From contig CAZQDR010000002.1 in NCBI GenBank assembly GCA_964591715.1, forward strand, positions 3,614 to 57,135: a stretch of 53,522 bases of DNA, written 5' to 3'. Made by a program: the position numbers and the translations under genes. This DNA is from an uncultured Candidatus Saccharibacteria bacterium. Lineage in GTDB: Bacteria; Patescibacteriota; Minisyncoccia; Phycocordibacterales; JACOZG01. Shown here piece by piece: positions 131-43,996 of this stretch (within the stretch, counting starts at the first letter, position 1; the number at the start of each line of letters is the position of its first letter). The notes beneath the pieces were generated by a model that was not told the DNA's origin, did not search any database, and worked only from the letters and a program-made list of their open reading frames with translations.

Positions 131-793
131 ATGGACAACGAAACAACCCCTCGCTCTTGTGTTAAGTCGCTTTGGAGTGAAAGTTTTTTCAAAGATGCCA
201 AGACCCTAGGAGAAACTCGCCAGCGAATCGAAGAAAAATGGAGTCATAATTTTCCTAACCCGGAATTAAGCAAGGCTTTAAGTGATTCGATTTTTTTAAT
301 CTCGACAGGAAAACGGGGTTCTTTTCGTTATAAGCAAAAGATTAATCCGCAAAGCGGCAGAATCGAAAACATTCAGGAACAATTGTTTTCGGATGATTTG
401 CTTTCCAGATTAGGTAGCCGTTTTAAGGCCGATATAGATGATCTACATCTAAATTTTGGCCGAAGCGGCACGTGTACAGCATTTCTTTTGCGTAAGATTT
501 TAGAGAAGGCCATATTTCTCGTATTTGCTCAAAATGGTTTTTCTTCCAAGCTGGAAGATGCTGGCGGGATGGGAAAAATTATTGGTCTAGAGGCCATGCT
601 GGATGCCGCTGCCCGCGAAAAAATTTTTGGTATTCCAATTTTAATTCCCAAAACAGCAGAAAAAATAAAAGGCATCAAGTTTCTGGGGGACACTTCAGCA
701 CACAATCCACTCACGGGCGTAGACATGGAAACCATTTTACCTCAAATGCCTTACATAATTACAGCCTACAAAGAACTTGCAGAACGACTTTAG
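131..793 (+). CDS. hypothetical protein with DUF4145-like C-terminal helical domain
   Basis: ORF track, 220 aa. The region is AT-rich (hand count of line 181: 25/60 GC). The C-terminal half shows LLRKILEKAIFLVF ... IKFLGDTSAHNP, which resembles the DUF4145 pattern (conserved R..gN..aH). This is recognised from memory only. Confidence 0.6.
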   Translation: MDNETTPRSCVKSLWSESFFKDAKTLGETRQRIEEKWSHNFPNPELSKALSDSIFLISTGKRGSFRYKQKINPQSGRIENIQEQLFSDDLLSRLGSRFKADIDDLHLNFGRSGTCTAFLLRKILEKAIFLVFAQNGFSSKLEDAGGMGKIIGLEAMLDAAAREKIFGIPILIPKTAEKIKGIKFLGDTSAHNPLTGVDMETILPQMPYIITAYKELAERL

Positions 794-900
794 CCTCAGA
801 TACTTTCTAACTAATTTTGGCTATAATTAACTCATTATGGAAGTATGTAAAACGTTCTAAAATCGCTCAAAGTGGTATTTTAAATCAAAACGAGATTAGA

Positions 901-928
901 TTGACTTTTGGGGGGAGCGGGATAGGGT
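901..928 (+). promoter_or_regulatory. sigma70-like promoter TTGACT-N16-TAGGGT
   Basis: TTGACT 901..906, 16-nt spacer, TAGGGT 923..928. It lies 40 nt upstream of the SD/ATG of the 970 gene. Confidence 0.45.
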
Positions 929-969
929 AAAGCAAGAATTTGGTAATACAATCCTTTGGAGGTAAAGAG

Positions 970-1272
970 ATGGACGCGCAATTTGGGGTACGAGTACTGG
1001 AGGCCGAGGCGGGCGCTAAGCCTCATCTGGCTAAGCTGGGGTGGGAGGAGACCCTGAAGCGGATCTGGTTGCTGTCGTGCAAAAGTATCCACGAGAACGA
1101 AGTGGCCATGCACGAATGCGAGCCCGGGCTTAACGACCTGGTGAAGGAGTCGGAGTTGCTCAAGAGCCGTTTGCCCAAGGACCAGCAGGCGGTGATGGTG
1201 CGAGCGTACTATGAGGCGATATGTACTCTGGCGGCGGCTCATCTGGAGATCTTGAGGAAGCTGGCGCGGTAA
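970..1272 (+). CDS. hypothetical small protein (100 aa), orphan
   Basis: The ORF track gives 940..1272 (TTG start). I prefer ATG 970 because GGAGG at 958..962 lies 7 nt upstream. GC-rich. Followed by a terminator. Confidence 0.6.
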   Translation: MDAQFGVRVLEAEAGAKPHLAKLGWEETLKRIWLLSCKSIHENEVAMHECEPGLNDLVKESELLKSRLPKDQQAVMVRAYYEAICTLAAAHLEILRKLAR

Positions 1273-1302
1273 GGGCAGTCCACCGAGCGCGGTTTATTGA
1301 GG

Positions 1303-1328
1303 GCGGCTGGTAATCCAGCCGCTTTTTA
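1303..1328 (+). terminator. intrinsic terminator
   Basis: gcggctgg (1303..1310) / taat loop / ccagccgc (1315..1322), then TTTTT. Confidence 0.75.
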
Positions 1329-1355
1329 TTTGCCTTTTGTTTGTCCTGGCTGATG

Positions 1356-1383
1356 TTGACTATTAGGAGGATTGTGGTAGTTT
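1356..1383 (+). promoter_or_regulatory. sigma70-like promoter TTGACT-N16-TAGTTT
   Basis: TTGACT 1356..1361, TAGTTT 1378..1383, preceded by tgtgg (the same ttgtggtagtt 11-mer recurs at 17221). Confidence 0.45.
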
Positions 1384-1434
1384 GGTGGCGGAAGTTCAAT
1401 CATTGTTCCACTATCATCACGAAAGGGGTATGGT

Positions 1435-1845
1435 ATGAGCGCAACGGATTGTGAGGTTGGGGTTCAAGGGCTGTTGGTTCGTCGGATTTCGATTCGGCGA
1501 CGAGACGAGTTGATGCAGCGCCAGATGGCGGCTGATATCCAGGCTCGGTTGGACCAGGAGGATGAGGAGGCGGTCAACAGGTTGTACAACGTCGCGCCTG
1601 AGGGTCTCTCCGAATGGCTGGTAAACGAGCGAGTGCTCGAGCGCCTCATGGAGGCCGACGGCTTCGTGCTCTGCTTCGAGGTGCCGTACGGCGAGGAGCT
1701 GGGACCCGATCTCTTCTGCAACTACGGCAGTTCGTTCGGCTATTTTATGGATCTGCAGAAGGCGTGGGCCGGCAACGTCAATGTCTATGTGGGCACCAAC
1801 TTGCCGGGCAAGTTGCAGATCAACTTAAGCTTGTTCACCCCCTGA
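1435..1845 (+). CDS. hypothetical protein, paralog of 5520..5870
   Basis: ORF track, 136 aa. SD aagggg lies 6 nt upstream. It shares RLYNVAPEGLSEWLVNERVLERLM / GKLQINLSLFTP blocks with the 5520 product. Confidence 0.7.
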   Translation: MSATDCEVGVQGLLVRRISIRRRDELMQRQMAADIQARLDQEDEEAVNRLYNVAPEGLSEWLVNERVLERLMEADGFVLCFEVPYGEELGPDLFCNYGSSFGYFMDLQKAWAGNVNVYVGTNLPGKLQINLSLFTP

Positions 1846-1871
1846 TCATTGACGGGTGAGCGGGCGCACTG

Positions 1872-1904
1872 GTGGGGTTAGTCTTCGGACGACCCCACTT
1901 TTTT
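1872..1904 (+). terminator. intrinsic terminator
   Basis: gtggggt (1872..1878) ... accccac (1892..1898) with an inner gtc-ttcg-gac, then TTTTTT. Confidence 0.75.
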
Positions 1905-1920
1905 GTATCTATGCCAAAGG

Positions 1921-1948
1921 TTGACTAATCAGATAAAAATAGTAATTT
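1921..1948 (+). promoter_or_regulatory. sigma70-like promoter TTGACT-N16-TAATTT
   Basis: TTGACT 1921..1926, TAATTT 1943..1948. Confidence 0.45.
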
Positions 1949-2070
1949 GAGGGTGGCGTTGGAACTTTGAAAGATTGATTGGCACTAATTCCTGAAAGGG
2001 GGAATCATGAGACTGGCCAGAATGAATCTCAGTTTGTGTCGGGCCCTCGTCTATAGAGTCGCCCCGGGAA

Positions 2071-2403
2071 GTGTACTACTTGGAATTGCGAGGACCCAAG
2101 GATACCAAGTGGCGCTTGGCTACGGGGATTAACTTGAACAACTGGATCCAGGGCGACGGTTGTGACGAAGAGAAGTATAACATCGTCAATACTTGGGGTA
2201 ACCAGTATCCTTACCGCAGCCTCGTTGAGTTTATGAAGGTGGGTGGACGACTAATCGCCGCGCGCTCCTTTAGGCTGATCAGTGAGAGTGACTGGGAGCC
2301 ACTTGAGAAGCGGCGACATGCGGCCCGGTCGGCGGCTGATACGCTGGTGGCGATGTATCGAAAATACGATTTAGCCAAACTCATAAACCTAGAGAGAGAC
2401 TAG
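2071..2403 (+). CDS. hypothetical protein (110 aa), start uncertain
   Basis: ORF track, GTG start with no SD. A strongly SD-led ATG at 2007 opens a different frame that overlaps it (see findings). The stop lies 16 nt before the next gene. Confidence 0.5.
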   Translation: MYYLELRGPKDTKWRLATGINLNNWIQGDGCDEEKYNIVNTWGNQYPYRSLVEFMKVGGRLIAARSFRLISESDWEPLEKRRHAARSAADTLVAMYRKYDLAKLINLERD

Positions 2404-2419
2404 GAGGAAAGGAGTCTGT

Positions 2420-2812
2420 ATGACTAAGGAGAAGAGGAAGATAGTCGTTCGGGTTAACTGGGCGACTGGTCGGGCGCTGGTGAAGGATGAGAAGGGCGGG
2501 GTCTTCCTGCTCGACAACAAACGGCCGAATATGCCCAAGCGATTGCCGGCGCCCAAGTGGGACAAGCTGGATTTGCTCTTTAACTCCAGTGGCTCTACCA
2601 CTTTTTCCAGCGAAACGTTAGAGGAGTCGGCGCCGTTTGTGGCGCTTTACTGGCGACTGCGAGTGGCACAGCTTCGGCACTCGATGGATTTGCTCTTTGA
2701 TCAGGCGCTGGATCCGAAGTGGCCGATCCCATTGCGAGATCAGGCCGTTCGCGACCTGATTGAGATGGGCGCCGCTTTGCCCAAGCTCCTGGCGCTGAAG
2801 GAGGAAGGGTAG
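2420..2812 (+). CDS. hypothetical protein (130 aa), orphan
   Basis: ORF track. SD aaggag 2409..2414 lies 5 nt from the ATG. Co-transcribed with 2071..2403. Confidence 0.65.
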   Translation: MTKEKRKIVVRVNWATGRALVKDEKGGVFLLDNKRPNMPKRLPAPKWDKLDLLFNSSGSTTFSSETLEESAPFVALYWRLRVAQLRHSMDLLFDQALDPKWPIPLRDQAVRDLIEMGAALPKLLALKEEG

Positions 2813-2850
2813 CGAGACGCAAAAGAAGAGCCGTCATGAGGCGGAGGGTT

Positions 2851-2891
2851 GGCGCGAGGAGGGGCAGGCTTTCCCCACCTCGCGCCTTTTT
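2851..2891 (+). terminator. intrinsic terminator (copy 1 of a duplicated module)
   Basis: ggcgcgaggagggg (2851..2864) / ccccacctcgcgcc (2873..2886), then TTTTT. Near-identical to 3332..3373. Confidence 0.8.
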
Positions 2892-2904
2892 ATATTTACC
2901 TCGT

Positions 2905-2932
2905 TTGACAGCGGGAACAGAAGGAGTATTTT
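2905..2932 (+). promoter_or_regulatory. sigma70-like promoter TTGACA-N16-TATTTT
   Basis: TTGACA 2905..2910, TATTTT 2927..2932. Confidence 0.45.
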
Positions 2933-2984
2933 GAATATGGATCATCATTCACGCTATTAGCAGTTCTTAATCAAGGAGAGGGCC

Positions 2985-3326
2985 ATGCCAGGGTTGGAAG
3001 TGACCGAGGAGATGTTGAAGCGGTCTCTGATTGCCACTATCGCAATCGAGAGGTTTGAGGCTCAGTGCTTTCAGTGTCGTCGGCATCACTACAAAAAGGA
3101 GGGCGCGCCTGTCCACGTTATCTATGATGGCGGGCGCCAACTTGTGGTTGGCTGTGAGTGTGGCGAGGCGCTACGCTATGCTCACCAGCTGTGGGAGCGC
3201 CGTTCCTTCGTGGTTGAGCTGCTCGGTCAAACCGAGGCGGCGAAAAGTCCAGGAGTGTCGATGGTCAGCGAGGCCTGCGGCTCGGAGTGTCGAACGCTGA
3301 CGAAGGTTGAGCTCTCGTCAACCTAA
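2985..3326 (+). CDS. hypothetical protein with zinc-ribbon-like Cys pattern
   Basis: ORF track, 113 aa. SD aaggagagg. It carries CFQC...(29 aa)...CEC, a possible 4-Cys site. Confidence 0.6.
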   Translation: MPGLEVTEEMLKRSLIATIAIERFEAQCFQCRRHHYKKEGAPVHVIYDGGRQLVVGCECGEALRYAHQLWERRSFVVELLGQTEAAKSPGVSMVSEACGSECRTLTKVELSST

Positions 3327-3331
3327 CGCCG

Positions 3332-3373
3332 GGCGCGAGGAGGGGAAGGCTTTCCCCACCTCGCGCCTTTTTT
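3332..3373 (+). terminator. intrinsic terminator (copy 2 of a duplicated module)
   Basis: ggcgcgaggagggg (3332..3345) / ccccacctcgcgcc (3354..3367), then TTTTTT. Confidence 0.8.
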
Positions 3374-3437
3374 ATATTCACTAGTAATTCAAGTTCAGTT
3401 TGATAAACTAAAACATTATTCATTAAAAATATTTATT

Positions 3438-3836
3438 ATGAATCGAGTTGTCCATTTCGAAATTCAGGCTGATGAGCCAGAGCGTGCGGCTAAGTTTTAC
3501 ACCGACGTGTTTGGTTGGGAGTTTAGCAAGTGGGAGAACCCAGGCAGTGATTACTGGTTAATTATGACCGGCCCTAAAGATACCAAGGAGCCAGGGATTA
3601 ACGGCGGCTTGTTGAAGCGGCCGACGGCTCGTCCGGGGCAACAACAGGGGACAAACGCTTACGTTTGTACGCTCCAAGTTGATAACTTTGACGAAATGGC
3701 CGCCAAAATCTTAGCCGCTGGGGGGATTGTAGCGATGCCAAAATATGCAATTCCCGGTATGGCTTGGCAGGGCTACTTCCTTGATACTGAGGGCAACACC
3801 TTCGGGATTCACCAGGCCGACAAAACCGCCGCCTAG
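3438..3836 (+). CDS. VOC (glyoxalase/bleomycin-resistance/dioxygenase) family protein
   Basis: 132 aa. VVHFEIQADEPERAAKFYTDVFGWEF ... GYFLDTEGNTFGIHQ is typical of small VOC-fold proteins. Confidence 0.8.
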   Translation: MNRVVHFEIQADEPERAAKFYTDVFGWEFSKWENPGSDYWLIMTGPKDTKEPGINGGLLKRPTARPGQQQGTNAYVCTLQVDNFDEMAAKILAAGGIVAMPKYAIPGMAWQGYFLDTEGNTFGIHQADKTAA

Positions 3837-3855
3837 CCAAAGTTTTACTCCACCC

Positions 3856-3883
3856 TTGACATCTCATTGTTAGAGCATAAGGT
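3856..3883 (+). promoter_or_regulatory. sigma70-like promoter TTGACA-N16-TAAGGT
   Basis: TTGACA 3856..3861, TAAGGT 3878..3883. Confidence 0.45.
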
Positions 3884-3943
3884 AAGACTAGAGGCGAACT
3901 AGTGTTTGCTAGTTCAAGGACTTTTATTTCGAGGAGACGGCAG

Positions 3944-5389
3944 ATGCAAAAGATGAACAGGGGACGAGGTCTGATGTTTGCGGCCTTCGGTATTTTGGCC
4001 GCGCTCTCACTGGGACAAGGCTGTCCCAGCTCCACGACGATTGTGACTCCGCCGGGTGAGACTGGACCCCAGGGGCCGCAAGGAATCCAGGGATTGCAGG
4101 GCGATACGGGTCCGGTTGGACCCGTTGGCGAAGCGGGAGCTCGAGGGCCGATCGGTCCAGTTGGTTTGACGGGTGCTATTGGTCTGACTGGTGATACGGG
4201 CCAACCCGGTACTCCGGGAGCTCAAGGTCCGTGGGGTGAGCAAGGACCGCAAGGTGATGCTGGACCGCGGGGTGAGCAAGGACCACAAGGCGAGCCTGGC
4301 GTGCAGGGGCCACAAGGGCCGAAAGGTGATCCAGGTGACCAAGGACCGCAAGGTGAGCAGGGGCCGAAAGGTGACACCGGTGCAACTGGTGCCGCTGGGG
4401 CAACTGGTGCCACTGGCGCGACAGGCGCAACCGGAGCCACTGGTGCTACCGGACCTACTGTTTTCACTTTCGTCACGGATGTTAACCAGGTGAACGCGGC
4501 TGTCAATGCGCTGCCCGCAGCGGGCGGTACCGTCATGTTGGCGCGAGGTGATCATTATCCCTCCGCGCCCATCAACATTGCTCGTAACAACGTGACCTTC
4601 TGTGGTGAGGGCTTGGGCACACGGATCCACCTACTTAACGGTGGACTGTTTCCACTGATCGTGATGGGCATCATGGCGCCCTACGATACCAACAACATTG
4701 CCTGTAGTGGGATTGTCGTCAAAGACCTGTATCTCGACGGCAATCGCCTCAATCAGTCGAGCGAGTTGTGCAAACTCCCGAATCTGGGTCACCTGCGCGT
4801 TAATGACATCACGGGTCGTCGCATCCAAAACTGCACGATCAGTAACGTGATCTGCGAAGGTGCGCGCAGCGGCGGCATTGTGCTCGAGTTGCCGTGCGAG
4901 AACGTTCTCATTACCTGGGTTATCTCCCGCGATAACCACTTTGATGGGATTGCGCTCGATGCCGTGGTTACGCGGATTTCCATCATCGGTTGCTGGTTGA
5001 TCAACAACCGCGCCTCGGGCTTGTCGCTTGATCTGGGTGTTCGCTACATTACGGTGGCTGACACAGTGATTTCGAACAATATCGACAATGGCGTGTTCAT
5101 GCGTAACAGCCAGTACGTCCTCTACGATGGCTGTCAGATCAACGGCAATGGCAACTACGGCATCTACATTGCCAACGGCGACGGCGCGACCGACAAGTGC
5201 GTCTACAACGTGTTCTCCAGCTGTCTGATCTCGGGCAACTTCCGCAGTGGCATCTTCCAGGACGGCAGTCGAAGTATCAACAACGTGCTGGCTGGCGTGG
5301 TGTTCCAGGGTAACGGTACCCCCAACATTAAGGAGACCTATCCGACAACGGCACCGCTCGTTCGTCAGGGTGTCAGTGAGTTCCCGTAA
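3944..5389 (+). CDS. secreted (possibly lipo-)protein: collagen-like triple-helix stalk + right-handed parallel beta-helix (PbH1/pectate-lyase-like) domain
   Basis: The ORF track gives 3902..5389 (GTG). ATG 3944 has gaggag 7 nt upstream and yields the signal peptide [27 protein letters not shown]. There are 45 uninterrupted G-X-Y triplets. Six ~22-aa PbH1-like repeats follow ([60 protein letters not shown] and others). Confidence 0.8.
4055..4459 (+). repeat. collagen-like G-X-Y coding repeat (45 triplets), ending in (GAT)n
   Basis: [15 protein letters not shown]...[27 protein letters not shown]. The 9-bp periodicity explains the long spurious antisense and alternate-frame ORFs at 4007..4630. 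Confidence 0.9.
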
Positions 5390-5400
5390 ATTCGGGCGTG

Positions 5401-5430
5401 GGTGGGAAGCAACGGCTTCCCACCTTTTTT
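5401..5430 (+). terminator. intrinsic terminator
   Basis: ggtgggaagc / aacg / gcttcccacc, a perfect 10-bp stem, then TTTTTT. Confidence 0.85.
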
Positions 5431-5437
5431 CGTACTC

Positions 5438-5465
5438 TTGACAAAATATTAATTATAAGTATAGT
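5438..5465 (+). promoter_or_regulatory. sigma70-like promoter TTGACA-N16-TATAGT
   Basis: TTGACA 5438..5443, TATAGT 5460..5465. Confidence 0.55.
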
Positions 5466-5519
5466 AGAAGGGCGTCTAAAGTTCATTCAGATCAAACAGA
5501 TCAAAACACGGAGGTAGCT

Positions 5520-5870
5520 ATGAGTACGTTGAATCGGGGTATGTTGGCCGAATCGATGACCAATCGCTTGGCTGCTCTTGAGCGTTTGCGGGAGCAGTTG
5601 TCGGCCCAGGACGAGCAAGACAAGCTCGCCTGCGACCAGCTCTATGAGGCGGCGCCTGCGGCACTCTCGGACTGGCTCATTAACGAGCTCGTCGTCGAGA
5701 AGCTCATTCGCCGAGGTATCTGTTGCCTCACGATTGACGAGCTGTCGCGGCCGCTCAAGGGCCAGCTCGAGGCCCTGCGCGAGGCGTGGAAGGATGTCGT
5801 GGCCATCGACAGCTACGAGGTTAACGGCCAGCTGCGCGTCAACCTGAGCATTATTCACCCCAAGTGTTAA
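5520..5870 (+). CDS. hypothetical protein, paralog of 1435..1845
   Basis: ORF track, 116 aa. GGAGG lies 5 nt upstream. It carries QLYEAAPAALSDWLINELVVEKLI and GQLRVNLSIIHP blocks. Confidence 0.7.
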   Translation: MSTLNRGMLAESMTNRLAALERLREQLSAQDEQDKLACDQLYEAAPAALSDWLINELVVEKLIRRGICCLTIDELSRPLKGQLEALREAWKDVVAIDSYEVNGQLRVNLSIIHPKC

Positions 5871-5887
5871 GCCCTACCACTTGGCGG

Positions 5888-5916
5888 ACAGGAGGCAATG
5901 TGCCTCCTGTTTTTTA
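5888..5916 (+). terminator. intrinsic terminator
   Basis: acaggaggca / atg / tgcctcctgt, then TTTTT. Confidence 0.8.
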
Positions 5917-5933
5917 TTTGGCCAAAAGTGGAG

Positions 5934-5939
5934 TAGAAT
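5934..5939 (+). promoter_or_regulatory. -10 box TAGAAT 6 nt upstream of ATG 5946 (leaderless-type)
   Basis: gagTAGAATaaaatcATG, with no SD between the box and the start. Confidence 0.4.
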
Positions 5940-5945
5940 AAAATC

Positions 5946-6368
5946 ATGACTTGGGCTATTTACGCGGTGCTCTCCGCTTTCTTTGCATCGCTCGTCGCTA
6001 TCTTTGCCAAGATCGGCATTAAGGGGATTGATAGTAATTTAGCGGTCGCCATTCGCACGCTAATTATTGTGGTCTTTGCGTGGGCGATTGTTTGGTTCCA
6101 GGGTAACGCCCGTGACTTATATAAAATTTCGAAGTATTCGTACACTTTTATTATTCTCTCGGCGATTGCCACGGGGCTCTCGTGGTTGTTTTACTACAAA
6201 GCGCTGCAGCTCGGTGAGGCCTCGCGCGTCGCGCCGATCGACAAGCTCTCGGTGGCTCTGACGCTGATCCTCGCCTTCCTGGTGCTCGGCGAGCGCGCCA
6301 CGCTCGGCAATGTTTTAGGCGGCGCCCTGGTCGCGGCCGGCGTTTTGGTGACCGTTTTAGTTAAATAA
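5946..6368 (+). CDS. EamA/DMT-superfamily small membrane transporter (single EamA domain)
   Basis: 140 aa with about 5 TM helices. IFAKIGIKGIDSNLAVAIRT ... YYKALQLGEASRVAPIDKLS is typical of EamA. Confidence 0.8.
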   Translation: MTWAIYAVLSAFFASLVAIFAKIGIKGIDSNLAVAIRTLIIVVFAWAIVWFQGNARDLYKISKYSYTFIILSAIATGLSWLFYYKALQLGEASRVAPIDKLSVALTLILAFLVLGERATLGNVLGGALVAAGVLVTVLVK

Positions 6369-6377
6369 TTTTCCTGG

Positions 6378-6770
6378 GTGATGCTTTGGCGATTGCGACT
6401 TCGGCGGGTGCGGCGTCGCCGGCCACGTTCTAAAACATCGCAAGCCGAGTTTGCCGAGCATGCTTCGGCGGCGCGCGCGCTAGTCGCCGCGCGCCTGGCC
6501 CACTTTAATCAGCATTATCAATTTACTTATCACCGGGTTAGTATTCGCAATCAGCGCACGCGCTGGGGGAGTTGCTCGCGTCAGGGCAATCTCAATTTTA
6601 ATTACAAAATCGCGCTCATTCCGCCACCTTTGGCTGACTATTTAATTGTTCACGAACTTTGTCATTTGGGTCAACTTAATCATTCGGCCAAGTTTTGGGC
6701 TTTAGTCGCCGAGACGATTCCCGATTGGCGCGAGCGCCGCCGCGCGCTTAAGGCTATCCCTTTATCTTGA
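6378..6770 (+). CDS. YgjP/DUF45-like zinc metallohydrolase (short form)
   Basis: 130 aa. [19 protein letters not shown]...[19 protein letters not shown] carries the HExxH core of the family. GTG start. Confidence 0.75.
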
Positions 6771-7924: not shown

Positions 7925-8368
7925 ATGCCAGGCACCAGTCCGAGAAGTCGACCCAAGCCGAAGGTTTATTTGATTGGTCAAGGCCTACCCAAAGGCGAAC
8001 AGGCCTATCCTGTGAGCTGGCTGATCCGGGAGTTGCCTTTGCTGGTGGACCTGGTTAGCTCGCCTCGCGACTGCGATCTATTGGTGGCGATCTCACCGAT
8101 CGAAACGGGCGATCTCGCGACCACAGTGATCATGATCGAGGAGCATCTGGGTTACGGTGGTCGAGTTCTGGTCATTCAGCCGATCGCCGAAGCGGGGAGT
8201 AGCTGTTTCCTCGTCCAGCTTGCCAGGAGTTATCCCGACCAAGGTGATGTGGAGCGCTTCATTAATTGGCCGGACGCCATGCAAACGATTTACCGTCGCG
8301 CCCATGCGATCGCTCAAGCAAGCACAGAAGAGCTCCCCCTGTTAACCCTGCGACGCTGCCGCGTCTAG
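7925..8368 (+). CDS. hypothetical protein (147 aa), GC-rich orphan
   Basis: ORF track. GGAGG 7913..7917 lies 7 nt upstream. It has its own terminator. No family recognised. Confidence 0.6.
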   Translation: MPGTSPRSRPKPKVYLIGQGLPKGEQAYPVSWLIRELPLLVDLVSSPRDCDLLVAISPIETGDLATTVIMIEEHLGYGGRVLVIQPIAEAGSSCFLVQLARSYPDQGDVERFINWPDAMQTIYRRAHAIAQASTEELPLLTLRRCRV

Positions 8369-9862: not shown

Positions 9863-10609
9863 ATGAGAGCAATATATATATTATGGTTACGGCAGTTGAA
9901 GCGCTTTATTCGCAAGAAGGCGAGCTTGGTGGGTGCGCTTGGTCAGCCGGTAATCTTTCTCTTAGCTTTTGGCTTTGGCCTCTCACCAATTTTTGCGCGC
10001 GCTGGGGCTGGTAATTACATGCAGTTTTTGGCGCCCGGTATTATTGCCATGACGGTGCTCTTTACCTCGATTTTTACTGGTGTCGAAATTATTTGGGATC
10101 GGCAGTTTGGATTTTTGAAGGAGACTTTCGTGGCGCCGATCTCGCGCTTCGAGATTTTGCTCGGCAAAACCTTCGGTGGCGCAACGGTGGCGATAGTCCA
10201 GTGCTAGTTGGTATTTTTAATTACTCATTTGGTCGGCTTCCGTCCCGTGAGCTGGGCCATGTTACCACTAGCCTTCTTGTTCCTGGTAGTGGTCGCCTGT
10301 TTGTTCTCCGCCCTGGGTACCGTCATTGCCGCGCGGCTTGATGACATGCAGGGCTTTCCTTTGATCATCAACTTCGTGATTCAACCTCTATTTTATCTTT
10401 CGGGCGCGCTCTTTCCCTTGGCTGGTCTGCCCAAAGTGTTAGAAATAATCACCCAACTTAACCCGCTGTCTTACGGGGTGGATGGTTTGCGCGGCACTCT
10501 TACAGGCGTGGTCCAATTTTCGCTCTGGCTCGATATGGGCGTGTTGGTGGGTGTGACTTTGTTGCTATTGTGGATTGGCTCGTTACTCTTTTCTCGAATT
10601 CAAATTTGA
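9863..10609 (+). pseudogene. ABC-2 type transporter permease interrupted by an in-frame TAG (10205..10207)
   Basis: ORFs 9863..10207 and 10208..10609 are contiguous and in the same frame (345 nt apart). Joined they give a ~248-aa, 6-TM ABC-2 permease (...ATVAIVQC*LVFLITHLVGF...). The second piece would otherwise need a TTG start directly after the stop. Confidence 0.7.
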
Positions 10610-10636
10610 CAGATCTATAAAAAGTGCTAGTTTTTA

Positions 10637-10666
10637 AAGGTCGGCTAGTGTTAGTCGGCCTTTATT
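10637..10666 (+). terminator. putative intrinsic terminator of the ABC operon
   Basis: aaggtcggcta / gtgt / tagtcggcctt (two G-U pairs), then tattg. Confidence 0.5.
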
Positions 10667-10759
10667 GATTGCATCCCATTGCTTTGGTGATGGCGCTATT
10701 AATAAAGTAATTGCGCTAACCCCGCAAAAAATCACAGTTCTTTTACAGGAGATTGTTTA

Positions 10760-11512
10760 ATGTCTGCTAACTCCAGACAAATTGACCCCACGTTTCTCGA
10801 GCTCGTCAGACGATTTACGGTTCTTGTGGCCGACGCTACCATTCTAATCAATAGATTGGCCCGGCCTAGGGAGATGATCGAGGCACTTTTGCGCGCCCTC
10901 CAGCTTTTCAAAGAAGGACGACTGGGCGGAGTGCTTGCTTCAGACCAACATTTCGAGCTAAACAAAATTGGAGGTAAGAATACGGCTGGAATCGAGCAGC
11001 GTCGAGCCCGATTCAAAGAAAGATTGGCGACGTTTGGCCTGGAATTGGTTACCAATGAGTTTTTGACACGTTTACCGAAGCGCGCTCGGAGGGCTCTGGT
11101 TGATTACGATGGCCGATTTTTCACCTCCTTGCCTGAATTGGTGCTTGCTCAACCAGGGCTGGAGACCGAAAGTTTAAGGAGAAAAAACTTCGGTGTCCAA
11201 TCTTTGACTGTTCTTGAGGCGGCTCTGGATGAGCTGGGGCTTTATATTGGTATGTCTCTGGAAGAGGTGGCAGATGCGTTCCACACTGTCCCGTCAAGGG
11301 AGTGGCTTGAGGAAAGTAGGCGCTACCACCATGATGAGGAGGTTCAGCAAGACTTCACCAAGTTAACAGAGGGTTTAGATCTTACTCAAGAAGAGCGTGA
11401 CGCTTTACGAAATATTTGGTTTTTACGGAATCCAGATAGATATATGGCTCACTGGGAGCTAGGGCAATCTGTGCGTTCAATTCTCTGGAAGTTGAGAGAT
11501 AAATCTCCTTAA
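10760..11512 (+). CDS. hypothetical protein with RNA polymerase alpha-subunit C-terminal-domain (alpha-CTD)-like helix-hairpin-helix module
   Basis: 250 aa. SD caggaga. Residues ~101-164 (LTRLPKRARRALVDYDGRFFTSLPELV...LRRKNFGVQSLTVLEAALDELGLYIG) follow the alpha-CTD pattern (LsvRa.N.L...i.ti.dL......L...knfGkkSl.Ei...L.elGL). Confidence 0.6.
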   Translation: MSANSRQIDPTFLELVRRFTVLVADATILINRLARPREMIEALLRALQLFKEGRLGGVLASDQHFELNKIGGKNTAGIEQRRARFKERLATFGLELVTNEFLTRLPKRARRALVDYDGRFFTSLPELVLAQPGLETESLRRKNFGVQSLTVLEAALDELGLYIGMSLEEVADAFHTVPSREWLEESRRYHHDEEVQQDFTKLTEGLDLTQEERDALRNIWFLRNPDRYMAHWELGQSVRSILWKLRDKSP

Positions 11513-43534: not shown

Positions 43535-43996
43535 GTGTTACTCGTAAAAACCAAAATTAAAGAGAGTGAGGTCCATGGAGTTGGTTTGTTTGCAGACCAA
43601 TTCATTCCGAAAGGAACTGAAATCTGGAGATTTACACCAGGCTTTGATCAAAAATTTACAAGGGAACAAATCCTAAGTTTTCCAGACTTACTTCAAATCT
43701 ATATCTACAAATATTGCTGGAGAAGCAAGAAAAGTAAATTGTATTGTTTATCTGCCGATAATGGAAAATACTTTAATCACTCTGAAAATCCGAATATCTT
43801 ATCCGGATACAGAGATAATGAGGAGGAAGTGGTTACCGTCGCTGTCCGAGATATAGAAACTGGAGAAGAAATTCTAGACAACTATTCATTTTTTGAAGAC
43901 GAGAAAAGCGAGAACAATGTTCTAGATGAAATTGCCGAAAAATTTCAGCTAAAAGATGAACTCGATCCTCGTTTTAAGAAGACGGTGGTGCGGTAG
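43535..43996 (+). CDS. SET-domain protein (putative protein-lysine methyltransferase)
   Basis: 153 aa, GTG start. ESEVHGVGLFADQFIPKGTEIWRF ... YFNHSENPN ... ETGEEILDNY are the SET motifs. Strongly AT-rich (line 43621: 20/60 GC). Confidence 0.7.
   Translation: MLLVKTKIKESEVHGVGLFADQFIPKGTEIWRFTPGFDQKFTREQILSFPDLLQIYIYKYCWRSKKSKLYCLSADNGKYFNHSENPNILSGYRDNEEEVVTVAVRDIETGEEILDNYSFFEDEKSENNVLDEIAEKFQLKDELDPRFKKTVVR

Follow-up and report, generated by a model that had tools for sequence, protein, structure and literature searches.

Why should a stretch of about 5 kb in a bacterial chromosome hold a run of small genes of no recognised family, each apparently equipped with signals of its own for starting and ending transcription? 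The question is raised by a window of 53,522 nucleotides (nt) from an uncultured Candidatus Saccharibacteria bacterium (contig CAZQDR010000002.1, positions 3,614 to 57,135 of the forward strand), which is the whole stretch of DNA analysed here, and within it by the block at positions 880–5920. The first-pass annotation of this DNA had taken the block for acquired accessory material, either phage-moron-like or concerned with host interaction, and for a candidate undescribed system. Our analysis leads to a different answer. We consider it fairly probable that the block is a plasticity strip of a Patescibacteria (candidate phyla radiation, CPR) chromosome, in which insulated one-gene cassettes lie amid native genes. 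The argument is based on comparison with one related genome, here called genome B, which is represented by contigs L003–L005 from three samples and was reached through the protein P0009, a member of the o5520 family described below.

The eight open reading frames (ORFs) proposed for the block were all recovered; they span 970–5870 and lie on the + strand. The features of the block are as follows (aa, amino acids).

901–928, + strand: P1, predicted promoter of o970 (motif match, TTGACT-N16-TAGGGT)
970–1272, + strand: o970, orphan gene of 100 aa, with an ortholog in genome B (92% aa identity)
1299–1330, + strand: T1, predicted terminator after o970 (hairpin 1299–1326; −22 to −25 kcal/mol)
1356–1383, + strand: P2, predicted promoter of o1435 (motif match)
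1435–1845, + strand: o1435, 136 aa, paralog of o5520; cassette missing in genome B
1871–1905, + strand: T2, predicted terminator after o1435 (hairpin 1871–1898; −19.9 kcal/mol)
1921–1948, + strand: P3, predicted promoter (motif match), part of a promoter module conserved in genome B
2007–2403, + strand: insert between P3 and o2420 with a 41-aa ORF and the out-of-frame o2071; missing in genome B
2420–2812, + strand: o2420, orphan gene of 130 aa; positional ortholog in genome B 45% identical
2851–2903, + strand: T3, predicted terminator (hairpin 2851–2886), copy 1 of a direct repeat of about 50 bp
2905–2932, + strand: P4, predicted promoter of o2985 (motif match)
2985–3326, + strand: o2985, Cys-rich orphan gene of 113 aa (CxxC...CxC); cassette missing in genome B
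3332–3385, + strand: T4, predicted terminator (hairpin 3332–3367), copy 2 of the repeat
3438–3836, + strand: VOC/glyoxalase-family gene (PF00903), native backbone, outside any cassette
3856–3883, + strand: P5, predicted promoter of the collagen/beta-helix gene (motif match)
3944–5389, + strand: gene for a predicted exported collagen/beta-helix protein; missing in genome B
5400–5431, + strand: T5, predicted terminator after the collagen/beta-helix gene (hairpin 5400–5425)
5438–5465, + strand: P6, predicted promoter of o5520 (11/12 consensus positions); similar promoter in genome B
5520–5870, + strand: o5520, 116 aa, paralog of o1435; ortholog P0009 in genome B, 37% identical
5886–5918, + strand: T6, predicted terminator (hairpin 5886–5912), followed by the conserved start region of the EamA gene

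Window and genome B share a backbone in the order VOC...o5520 ortholog-EamA-YgjP-o6801-...-cupin-ABC-...-GT4, with protein identities of 80–99% (EamA 96%, YgjP 94%, o6801 80%, cupin 92%, ABC ATPase 96% and GT4 99%). Within the block, o970, o2420, the VOC gene and o5520 are kept in genome B in the same order and adjoining EamA-YgjP, whereas the other four of the eight genes (o1435, o2071, o2985 and the collagen/beta-helix gene) are missing; the units of these four have a GC content at third codon positions (GC3) of 0.63–0.79 against 0.55. The accessory and variable character claimed for the block is therefore borne out by this comparison for half of its genes, but its acquisition as a whole is not, because the other half is syntenic. 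Individual slots show what the difference consists of. The slot of o1435 is occupied in genome B by an unrelated gene for an 89-aa membrane protein and that of the collagen/beta-helix gene by a gene for a 137-aa secreted DUF5666-like protein, while the roughly 420 bp holding o2071 are missing, so that there the o2420 ortholog comes directly after the promoter module. The left breakpoint of synteny lies at about 948, just downstream of P1, and nothing is common to the two genomes to the left of o970.

The retained small genes have not behaved like their neighbours. Backbone genes differ between window and genome B with a synonymous divergence (dS) of 0.5–1.1 and a non-synonymous divergence (dN) of 0.01–0.13. 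However, o2420 and o5520 are only 45% and 37% identical to their counterparts, compared with 92–99% for neighbouring genes, and their dN values (0.53 and 0.62) exceed those of the conserved neighbours EamA, YgjP and VOC more than 10-fold. Both nevertheless retain open frames and conserved motifs. Divergence in o5520 is uneven, its N-terminal half being about 50% identical to that of P0009 and its C-terminal half almost unrelated. In contrast, o970 (GC3 0.77) has a dS of 0.235, lower than that of the backbone genes, which suggests that this DNA is younger than its surroundings and fits a recent exchange; its dN/dS of 0.19 indicates a constrained protein-coding gene. Outside the block, o7925 (7925–8368; 147 aa, no family match) also evolves fast like o2420 and o5520, being 44–48% identical to its positional ortholog in genome B where its neighbours are 80–92% identical.

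Each unit of the block appears to carry its own signals. From shuffled sequence, 0.50±0.69 copies of the motif TTGACW-N16-TANNNT are expected, but the window contains 11, a count that none of 100 shuffles reached. Six + strand copies fall within the block (at 901, 1356, 1921, 2905, 3856 and 5438), an enrichment of about 12-fold, and each is located 35–60 nt upstream of a GGAGG-type Shine–Dalgarno sequence (SD) and a start codon. Copies stand ahead of backbone genes as well (6767, 10606 and 45972), and the motif thus seems to be the ordinary promoter of this genome, simply very dense in the block. Stop codons are followed by six GC-rich hairpins with T-runs, having predicted energies of −20 to −32 kcal/mol and T-runs that start at 1323, 1899, 2887, 3368, 5425 and 5910, and the next promoter follows a terminator after only 7–30 nt. 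These hairpins differ in sequence except for the pair at 2851 and 3332. Comparison of the terminator after o970 with its counterpart in genome B reveals compensatory changes in the stem, which argue that the hairpins are functional. All six promoters and all six terminators of the first-pass annotation were thus found again, the promoters beyond what shuffled sequence yields, and the moron-like anatomy of promoter, ORF and terminator was confirmed at the sequence level. Recoding of TGA was ruled out, as the TGA stops are directly followed by terminators.

The clearest trace of cassette movement surrounds o2985. The terminators at 2851 and 3332 are 41-nt copies with 98% identity, and they belong to a repeat of about 50 bp that consists of the hairpin and TTTTTATATTnAC; the hairpin tied to the o2985 cassette reads GCGCGAGG...CCTCGCGCC. 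In the window, a 481-bp unit made up of the promoter at 2905, o2985 and a terminator lies between these direct repeats, while genome B has a single copy, with the end of o2420 to its left and the VOC leader to its right. The location of o2985 between two copies of one terminator suggests that the cassette entered or left at the terminator. Both window copies carry A at the ninth position, unlike the single copy of genome B, and this common base favours duplication in the window lineage after the split. Simple tandem duplication was rejected as the source of the two terminators because the intervening sequence is unrelated to o2420. Promoter sequence also recurs: a module of 33–44 nt is present once in the window (1918–1961) and twice in genome B (L003 8276–8319 and 7523–7564).

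The block also deviates from the backbone in composition. Its GC content is 0.52–0.60, against about 0.49, and the small ORFs have a GC3 of 0.65–0.79 (0.70 taken together), compared with 0.55±0.06 in 41 other window genes. Tetranucleotide distance is raised as well (z = 1.3–2.4). The shift is real yet moderate, not dramatic, and the description of the block as GC-richer holds except for the VOC gene, whose GC3 of 0.59 is close to that of the backbone. This gene is clearly a member of its family (PF00903, E 1.6e-9, 38.6 bits with a cut-off of 20.6) and is 92% identical to the copy in genome B. Its homologs occur in 25 genomes, mostly CPR metagenome-assembled genomes (MAGs); those at 57–73% identity belong mainly to Saccharibacteria, Parcubacteria, Magasanikbacteria, Paceibacterota and other CPR MAGs. 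At times an EamA, YgjP, cupin or ABC gene lies no more than 10 kb away from them, and none of the VOC homolog loci elsewhere holds any of the block orphans. The neighbours of VOC, together with the gene content, are also what assigns the organism to Patescibacteria.

In the proposed plasticity strip, every cassette begins with a predicted sigma-70-type promoter of consensus form, placed straight after the preceding terminator, and continues through a leader of about 35–55 nt, which has a strong SD, to a short ORF and a strong predicted intrinsic terminator. Compared with genome B, the scaffold of o970, o2420, VOC and o5520, continuing into EamA-YgjP and onward, persists, while the units of o1435 and o2985, the insert holding o2071 and the gene at 3944 are inserted, deleted or swapped at terminator/promoter junctions. 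The small genes that are retained either diverge fast (o2420, o5520) or, as o970 does with its low dS, look lately exchanged. With its own signals on every unit, a newcomer gene could be expressed and leave its neighbours undisturbed, following the logic known from phage morons. We infer that the small proteins are independent, dispensable accessory products under lineage-specific or conflict-type selection and not the parts of one machine.

Most of the small products remain orphans at every level of search. For o970, o1435, o2071, o2420, o2985 and o5520 there was no match in Pfam, PHROG, PADLOC or NCBIfam, as the first-pass annotation had suspected for the products of 100–136 aa, and the CxxC...CxC pattern that it had reported as zinc-ribbon-like, a putative zinc-binding feature, is present in o2985. 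In a collection of 15 billion proteins, the 90%-identity clusters of the six products are singletons except that of o970, which also includes the ortholog from genome B. Sequence searches of PDB gave no match, exact look-ups of the window proteins returned no other contig, and profile-profile comparison detected no remote homology among the orphan families, o1435 and o5520 counting as one family.

That family provides the best view of what such a product might be. The two paralogs are 30% identical over 112 residues, and their profile retrieved just 11 further proteins from 1.84 billion representatives (119–139 aa, E 1.7e-6 to 9e-4, matched over most of their length); a word-index search with o1435 returned only itself. 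The family shares the motifs L..AP..L..WL and L..AW..V. AlphaFold modelling of the o1435 family from the family alignment gave a mean confidence (pLDDT) of 89.5 and predicts that an N-terminal helix of 50 residues is combined with a pair of short helices and a small alpha/beta unit. Foldseek comparison of this model yielded a best E of 0.19 in PDB and 0.027 in BFVD, with TM-scores of about 0.5 or lower. The members would accordingly be cytoplasmic proteins in which a long conserved N-terminal helix is joined to a small variable alpha/beta domain; speculatively, the helix may oligomerise and the variable domain may give binding specificity. The idea that the family mimics DNA through consistent acidity was discarded, as isoelectric points span 4.4 to 9.8. 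Members lie within about 1 kb of a gene for a YgjP-like metallopeptidase in 3 of 6 distinct readable contexts (L001 3294–4285, the window at 5520–6770 and L003 10001–11269); there is no such link in L002, L006 and L118.

The product of the gene at 3944 is of a different kind. From the N-terminus, it has a hydrophobic segment ending in GQGC, a G-X-Y repeat of 45 uninterrupted triplets (nt 4055–4459; Pfam Collagen, E 6.7e-22) and a right-handed beta-helix. The head matches PF13229 Beta_helix with 37.2 bits (cut-off 25.9) and PF05048 NosD with 30 bits (cut-off 23.6), and its AlphaFold model has a pLDDT of 95. Foldseek comparison of this model with PDB gave 207 matches at E<=0.001, led by AlgE6/AlgE4 (E about 1e-11) and followed by alginate epimerase/lyase, phi29 gp12, phage tailspikes and polysaccharide lyases; phi29 gp12 and the CBA120 tailspike matched at E 1e-8 to 1e-7. 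Residues invariant in the beta-helix family include D167, R141 and N188. The combination of collagen stalk and beta-helix head was otherwise seen in a few uncharacterised metagenomic proteins only. Based on these models, the protein is most likely an exported trimeric surface stalk with a polysaccharide-binding or -modifying head. Its earlier description as tail-fibre-like could not be upheld. The PHROG 'tail fibre' matches (E to 1e-31) fall on the collagen repeats only, and the beta-helix domain has no match in 50,697 phage genomes or IMG/VR. The closest beta-helix homologs (53–55% identical, N-terminus likewise with GQGC, e.g. P0015) are present in a conserved, CPR-like context of Dus, DnaX and a small membrane protein, on contigs of 57% GC, which points to a chromosomal family. 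The window gene may have come from a GC-richer relative.

Several points weigh against the plasticity-strip explanation or limit it. Only one relative was compared, and the base shared by the two terminators is the one feature that hints at a direction of gain or loss. Synonymous divergence is near saturation in most genes, and the dN/dS estimates for o2420 and o5520 are rough. Promoters and terminators are predictions from sequence. The putative accessory or conflict role is read from the evolutionary pattern, and the explanation does not by itself account for the raised GC3 that orphans show in either genome (0.72–0.76 in the orthologs of genome B). Lastly, o2071 and o2985 are without any homolog and could be non-functional. 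Further relatives were sought through the neighbouring gene o6801, with none in GTDB genomes or JGI metagenomes, and a scan with EamA returned 80 loci at 52–86% identity, none of which is syntenic with the block.

Among the other explanations, one goes further in the same direction and takes the terminator hairpins as landing sites for promoter-ORF-terminator cassettes, which would form integrase-less, integron-like arrays with products that mediate host/phage conflict in an episymbiont. The duplication of about 50 bp around o2985 does suggest a cassette-borne terminator recombining at a chromosomal copy. If it were true, the hypervariable products of such arrays would include the collagen/beta-helix fibre as well as the proteins with the new fold of the o1435/o5520 family. 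As a general mechanism we regard it as a long shot.

About equally improbable is a reading in which each small protein would counter a different toxin of a host or competitor, the whole forming an array of orphan immunity or antidote-type proteins comparable to the gene arrays acquired for interbacterial defence. The products are of suitable kind, being 100–136 aa long, cytoplasmic and mutually unrelated, and their genes are hypervariable or present/absent between relatives and predicted to be individually expressed; diverse standalone cassettes of this sort are a concept treated in a review (PMC3482391). However, none of the products matches a known immunity family, the vicinity contains neither a toxin gene nor a recombinase, and what speaks for the idea is purely the pattern.

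Little credence is given here to the view that the orphan ORFs, in part or entirely, lack function and represent artefacts of annotation, fragments in decay or young non-adaptive ORFs; o2071 is a case that fits it. A well-placed SD and ATG at 2007 open an ORF of 41 aa only (2007–2132), while o2071 (110 aa) lies in a different frame and begins with a GTG at 2071 without a proper SD, making its start doubtful; the GC3 phase switches around 2010–2040. The 2007–2403 insert may be frameshifted, hold a decayed gene or contain a leader peptide. The N-terminus of o2071 (YYLELRGPKDTK..GIN) also resembles the neighbouring VOC protein (YWLIMTGPKDTKEPGIN), in the regions 2068–2140 and 3540–3600, with 15/18 bases matching in DNA. 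The protein score of 55 compares with 26±4.7 for shuffled sequence, the largest of 500 shuffles being 57, and the VOC-family HMM (hidden Markov model) does not match this N-terminus. The likeness reflects either a small conversion patch or chance. Like o2071, o2985 has no homolog anywhere searched. Against this explanation for the set, o970 has the constrained dN/dS given above, o2420 and o5520 keep frames and motifs at 37–45% identity, and all small ORFs show the codon-position pattern GC1>GC2<GC3 together with strong SDs, promoters and terminators. The 11 further members, shared motifs and confidently modelled fold of the o1435/o5520 family point the same way, and overall the small genes look real.

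A single functional system of cooperating members, such as a defence/anti-defence or toxin-immunity set, is very unlikely. The genes are tightly packed on one strand, the paralogs o1435 and o5520 bracket the block, and the fast evolution of o2420 and o5520 would suit conflict genes. However, PADLOC defence models gave just two marginal matches (E 0.036 and 0.064), which do not amount to a system, and every gene is separately promoted and terminated as far as prediction goes. Half of the genes are missing in genome B, and the orphans lack even remote homology to one another. At other loci no orphan families were found near each other; members of the o1435/o5520 family and homologs of the beta-helix occur alone among varied neighbours. 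The co-occurrence expected of an undescribed coordinated system was therefore not found.

The remaining explanation, a single acquired island or a decayed prophage with morons and a former tail fibre, has in its favour the atypical composition, the moron-like anatomy, the PHROG tail-fibre matches, the phage tailspikes among the fold matches and an AT-rich, foreign-looking gene at the left border in both genomes, but it is largely refuted and very improbable, since the VOC gene inside is a conserved CPR gene of backbone composition, its synteny with genome B is shared by o970, o2420 and o5520, the beta-helix belongs to a chromosomal family, the orphans have no match in phage genomes or IMG/VR, and neither an integrase or transposase nor a phage domain was found in the 49 window ORFs, among those of at least 100 aa, covered by the domain scan. 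A tblastn search of the window with the integrase of genome B gave no match either, the only tRNAs of the window (at 32.4 kb and 41.7 kb) are not at a block border, and no direct repeats flanking the whole block were found.

The borders of the block and the rest of the window show further variation. For the left neighbour of 220 aa, the assignment as DUF4145-like was not reproduced, as Pfam gave no match at E<0.1. AT-rich genes (GC 0.38–0.42) that are mutually dissimilar lie directly left of o970 in both genomes (window 131–793; L003 5066–7519); they encode the 220-aa protein in the window, and a 353-aa protein together with DUF559 and Exo_endo_phos genes in genome B. A second kind of foreign DNA uses this hotspot left of o970. 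At the right border, the EamA gene has no SD, and a TAGAAT box ends 7 nt before its ATG (window 5913–5948; L003 10405–10447), in agreement with the leaderless start proposed for it; the 40-nt segment upstream is 97.5% conserved in genome B, consistent with such a start.

Synteny is broken repeatedly beyond the block (10606–11512; L003 15120–18222 and 19556–20372). In place of o10760, which has its own consensus promoter at 10606, genome B has a VTT-domain gene; it also has two extra genes, ABC_tran and BPD_transp_1, and GT4 is followed by a tyrosine integrase in genome B and by a GH57 gene in the window. Breaks in gene order outside the block are as expected for general gene flux. An ABC-2 permease gene (9863–10609) is split by an in-frame stop at 10205–10207 into ORFs of 114 aa and 133 aa, while its ortholog in genome B is intact (248 aa, 95–98% identical); either a nonsense mutation or an error of sequencing could account for the stop. 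The SET-domain gene at 43535–43996 has very low GC (0.37, and 0.35 for GC3) where the backbone is at about 50%, and is probably foreign. The segment 32592–36185, which encodes a 1197-aa protein with G8 and peptidoglycan-binding domains and has an odd codon-position composition (GC2 0.56), is the most tetranucleotide-deviant of the window (z = 2.9).

How does the block compare with systems already known? Phage morons are described (PMC3594210) as independent promoter-gene-terminator units inserted between phage genes. The units of the block resemble them in being self-contained at the sequence level, in their atypical composition, in being present or absent at the same position between relatives and in inserting at gene boundaries that leave the neighbours undisturbed. 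However, the block is located in a cellular chromosome among housekeeping genes, with no phage genes in the scanned ORFs of the 53 kb, and a duplicated terminator of about 50 bp flanking one unit is not a defining moron trait. Hypervariable regions of small genes, for example those holding AcrIIA22 (PMC8545432), share with the block the conserved flanks, a variable interior of small orphans and differing genes in the same slot. Unlike such plasticity zones, the block is very compact (5 kb), each gene is insulated, native genes are interleaved and there is no mobile-element gene.

Integron arrays are similar in having short one-gene cassettes of one orientation with imperfect palindromes between them, and one cassette of the block is bounded by a repeated palindromic sequence. 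In contrast to those arrays, the block has no integrase (in the scanned ORFs) or attI and each cassette has its own promoter, and its palindromes are not like attC, being heterogeneous GC-rich stems with T-runs, typical of intrinsic terminators, without a common core. The gene at 3944 recalls collagen-like surface proteins of the Scl/BclA type in its long uninterrupted G-X-Y stalk with a globular domain, and the mannuronan C-5 epimerases AlgE4/AlgE6 and phage tailspikes in its C-terminal right-handed parallel beta-helix. It differs from characterised proteins of either kind in joining the two, and no solved structure reaches 20% sequence identity to it. In cultivated Patescibacteria, host recognition has so far reportedly been attributed mainly to type IV pili (10.1101/2024.11.25.624915), and the collagen-stalk/beta-helix protein is, judging from its model, a reasonable candidate for contact with the host envelope.

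Patescibacteria have small genomes with a large share of genes without known function, and how genes are acquired and tested in them is poorly understood. At this locus, gene turnover can be followed cleanly between two genomes, cassette by cassette. The locus also shows a clear mechanistic footprint, in that a duplicated terminator bounds an insertion and a promoter module has been reused, and it contributes a small family (o1435/o5520) that has a confident fold and no match in PDB or BFVD. The block is not a new kind of system; beside morons, plasticity zones and integron arrays, it is of value as a basis on which pangenome and structural work can build.

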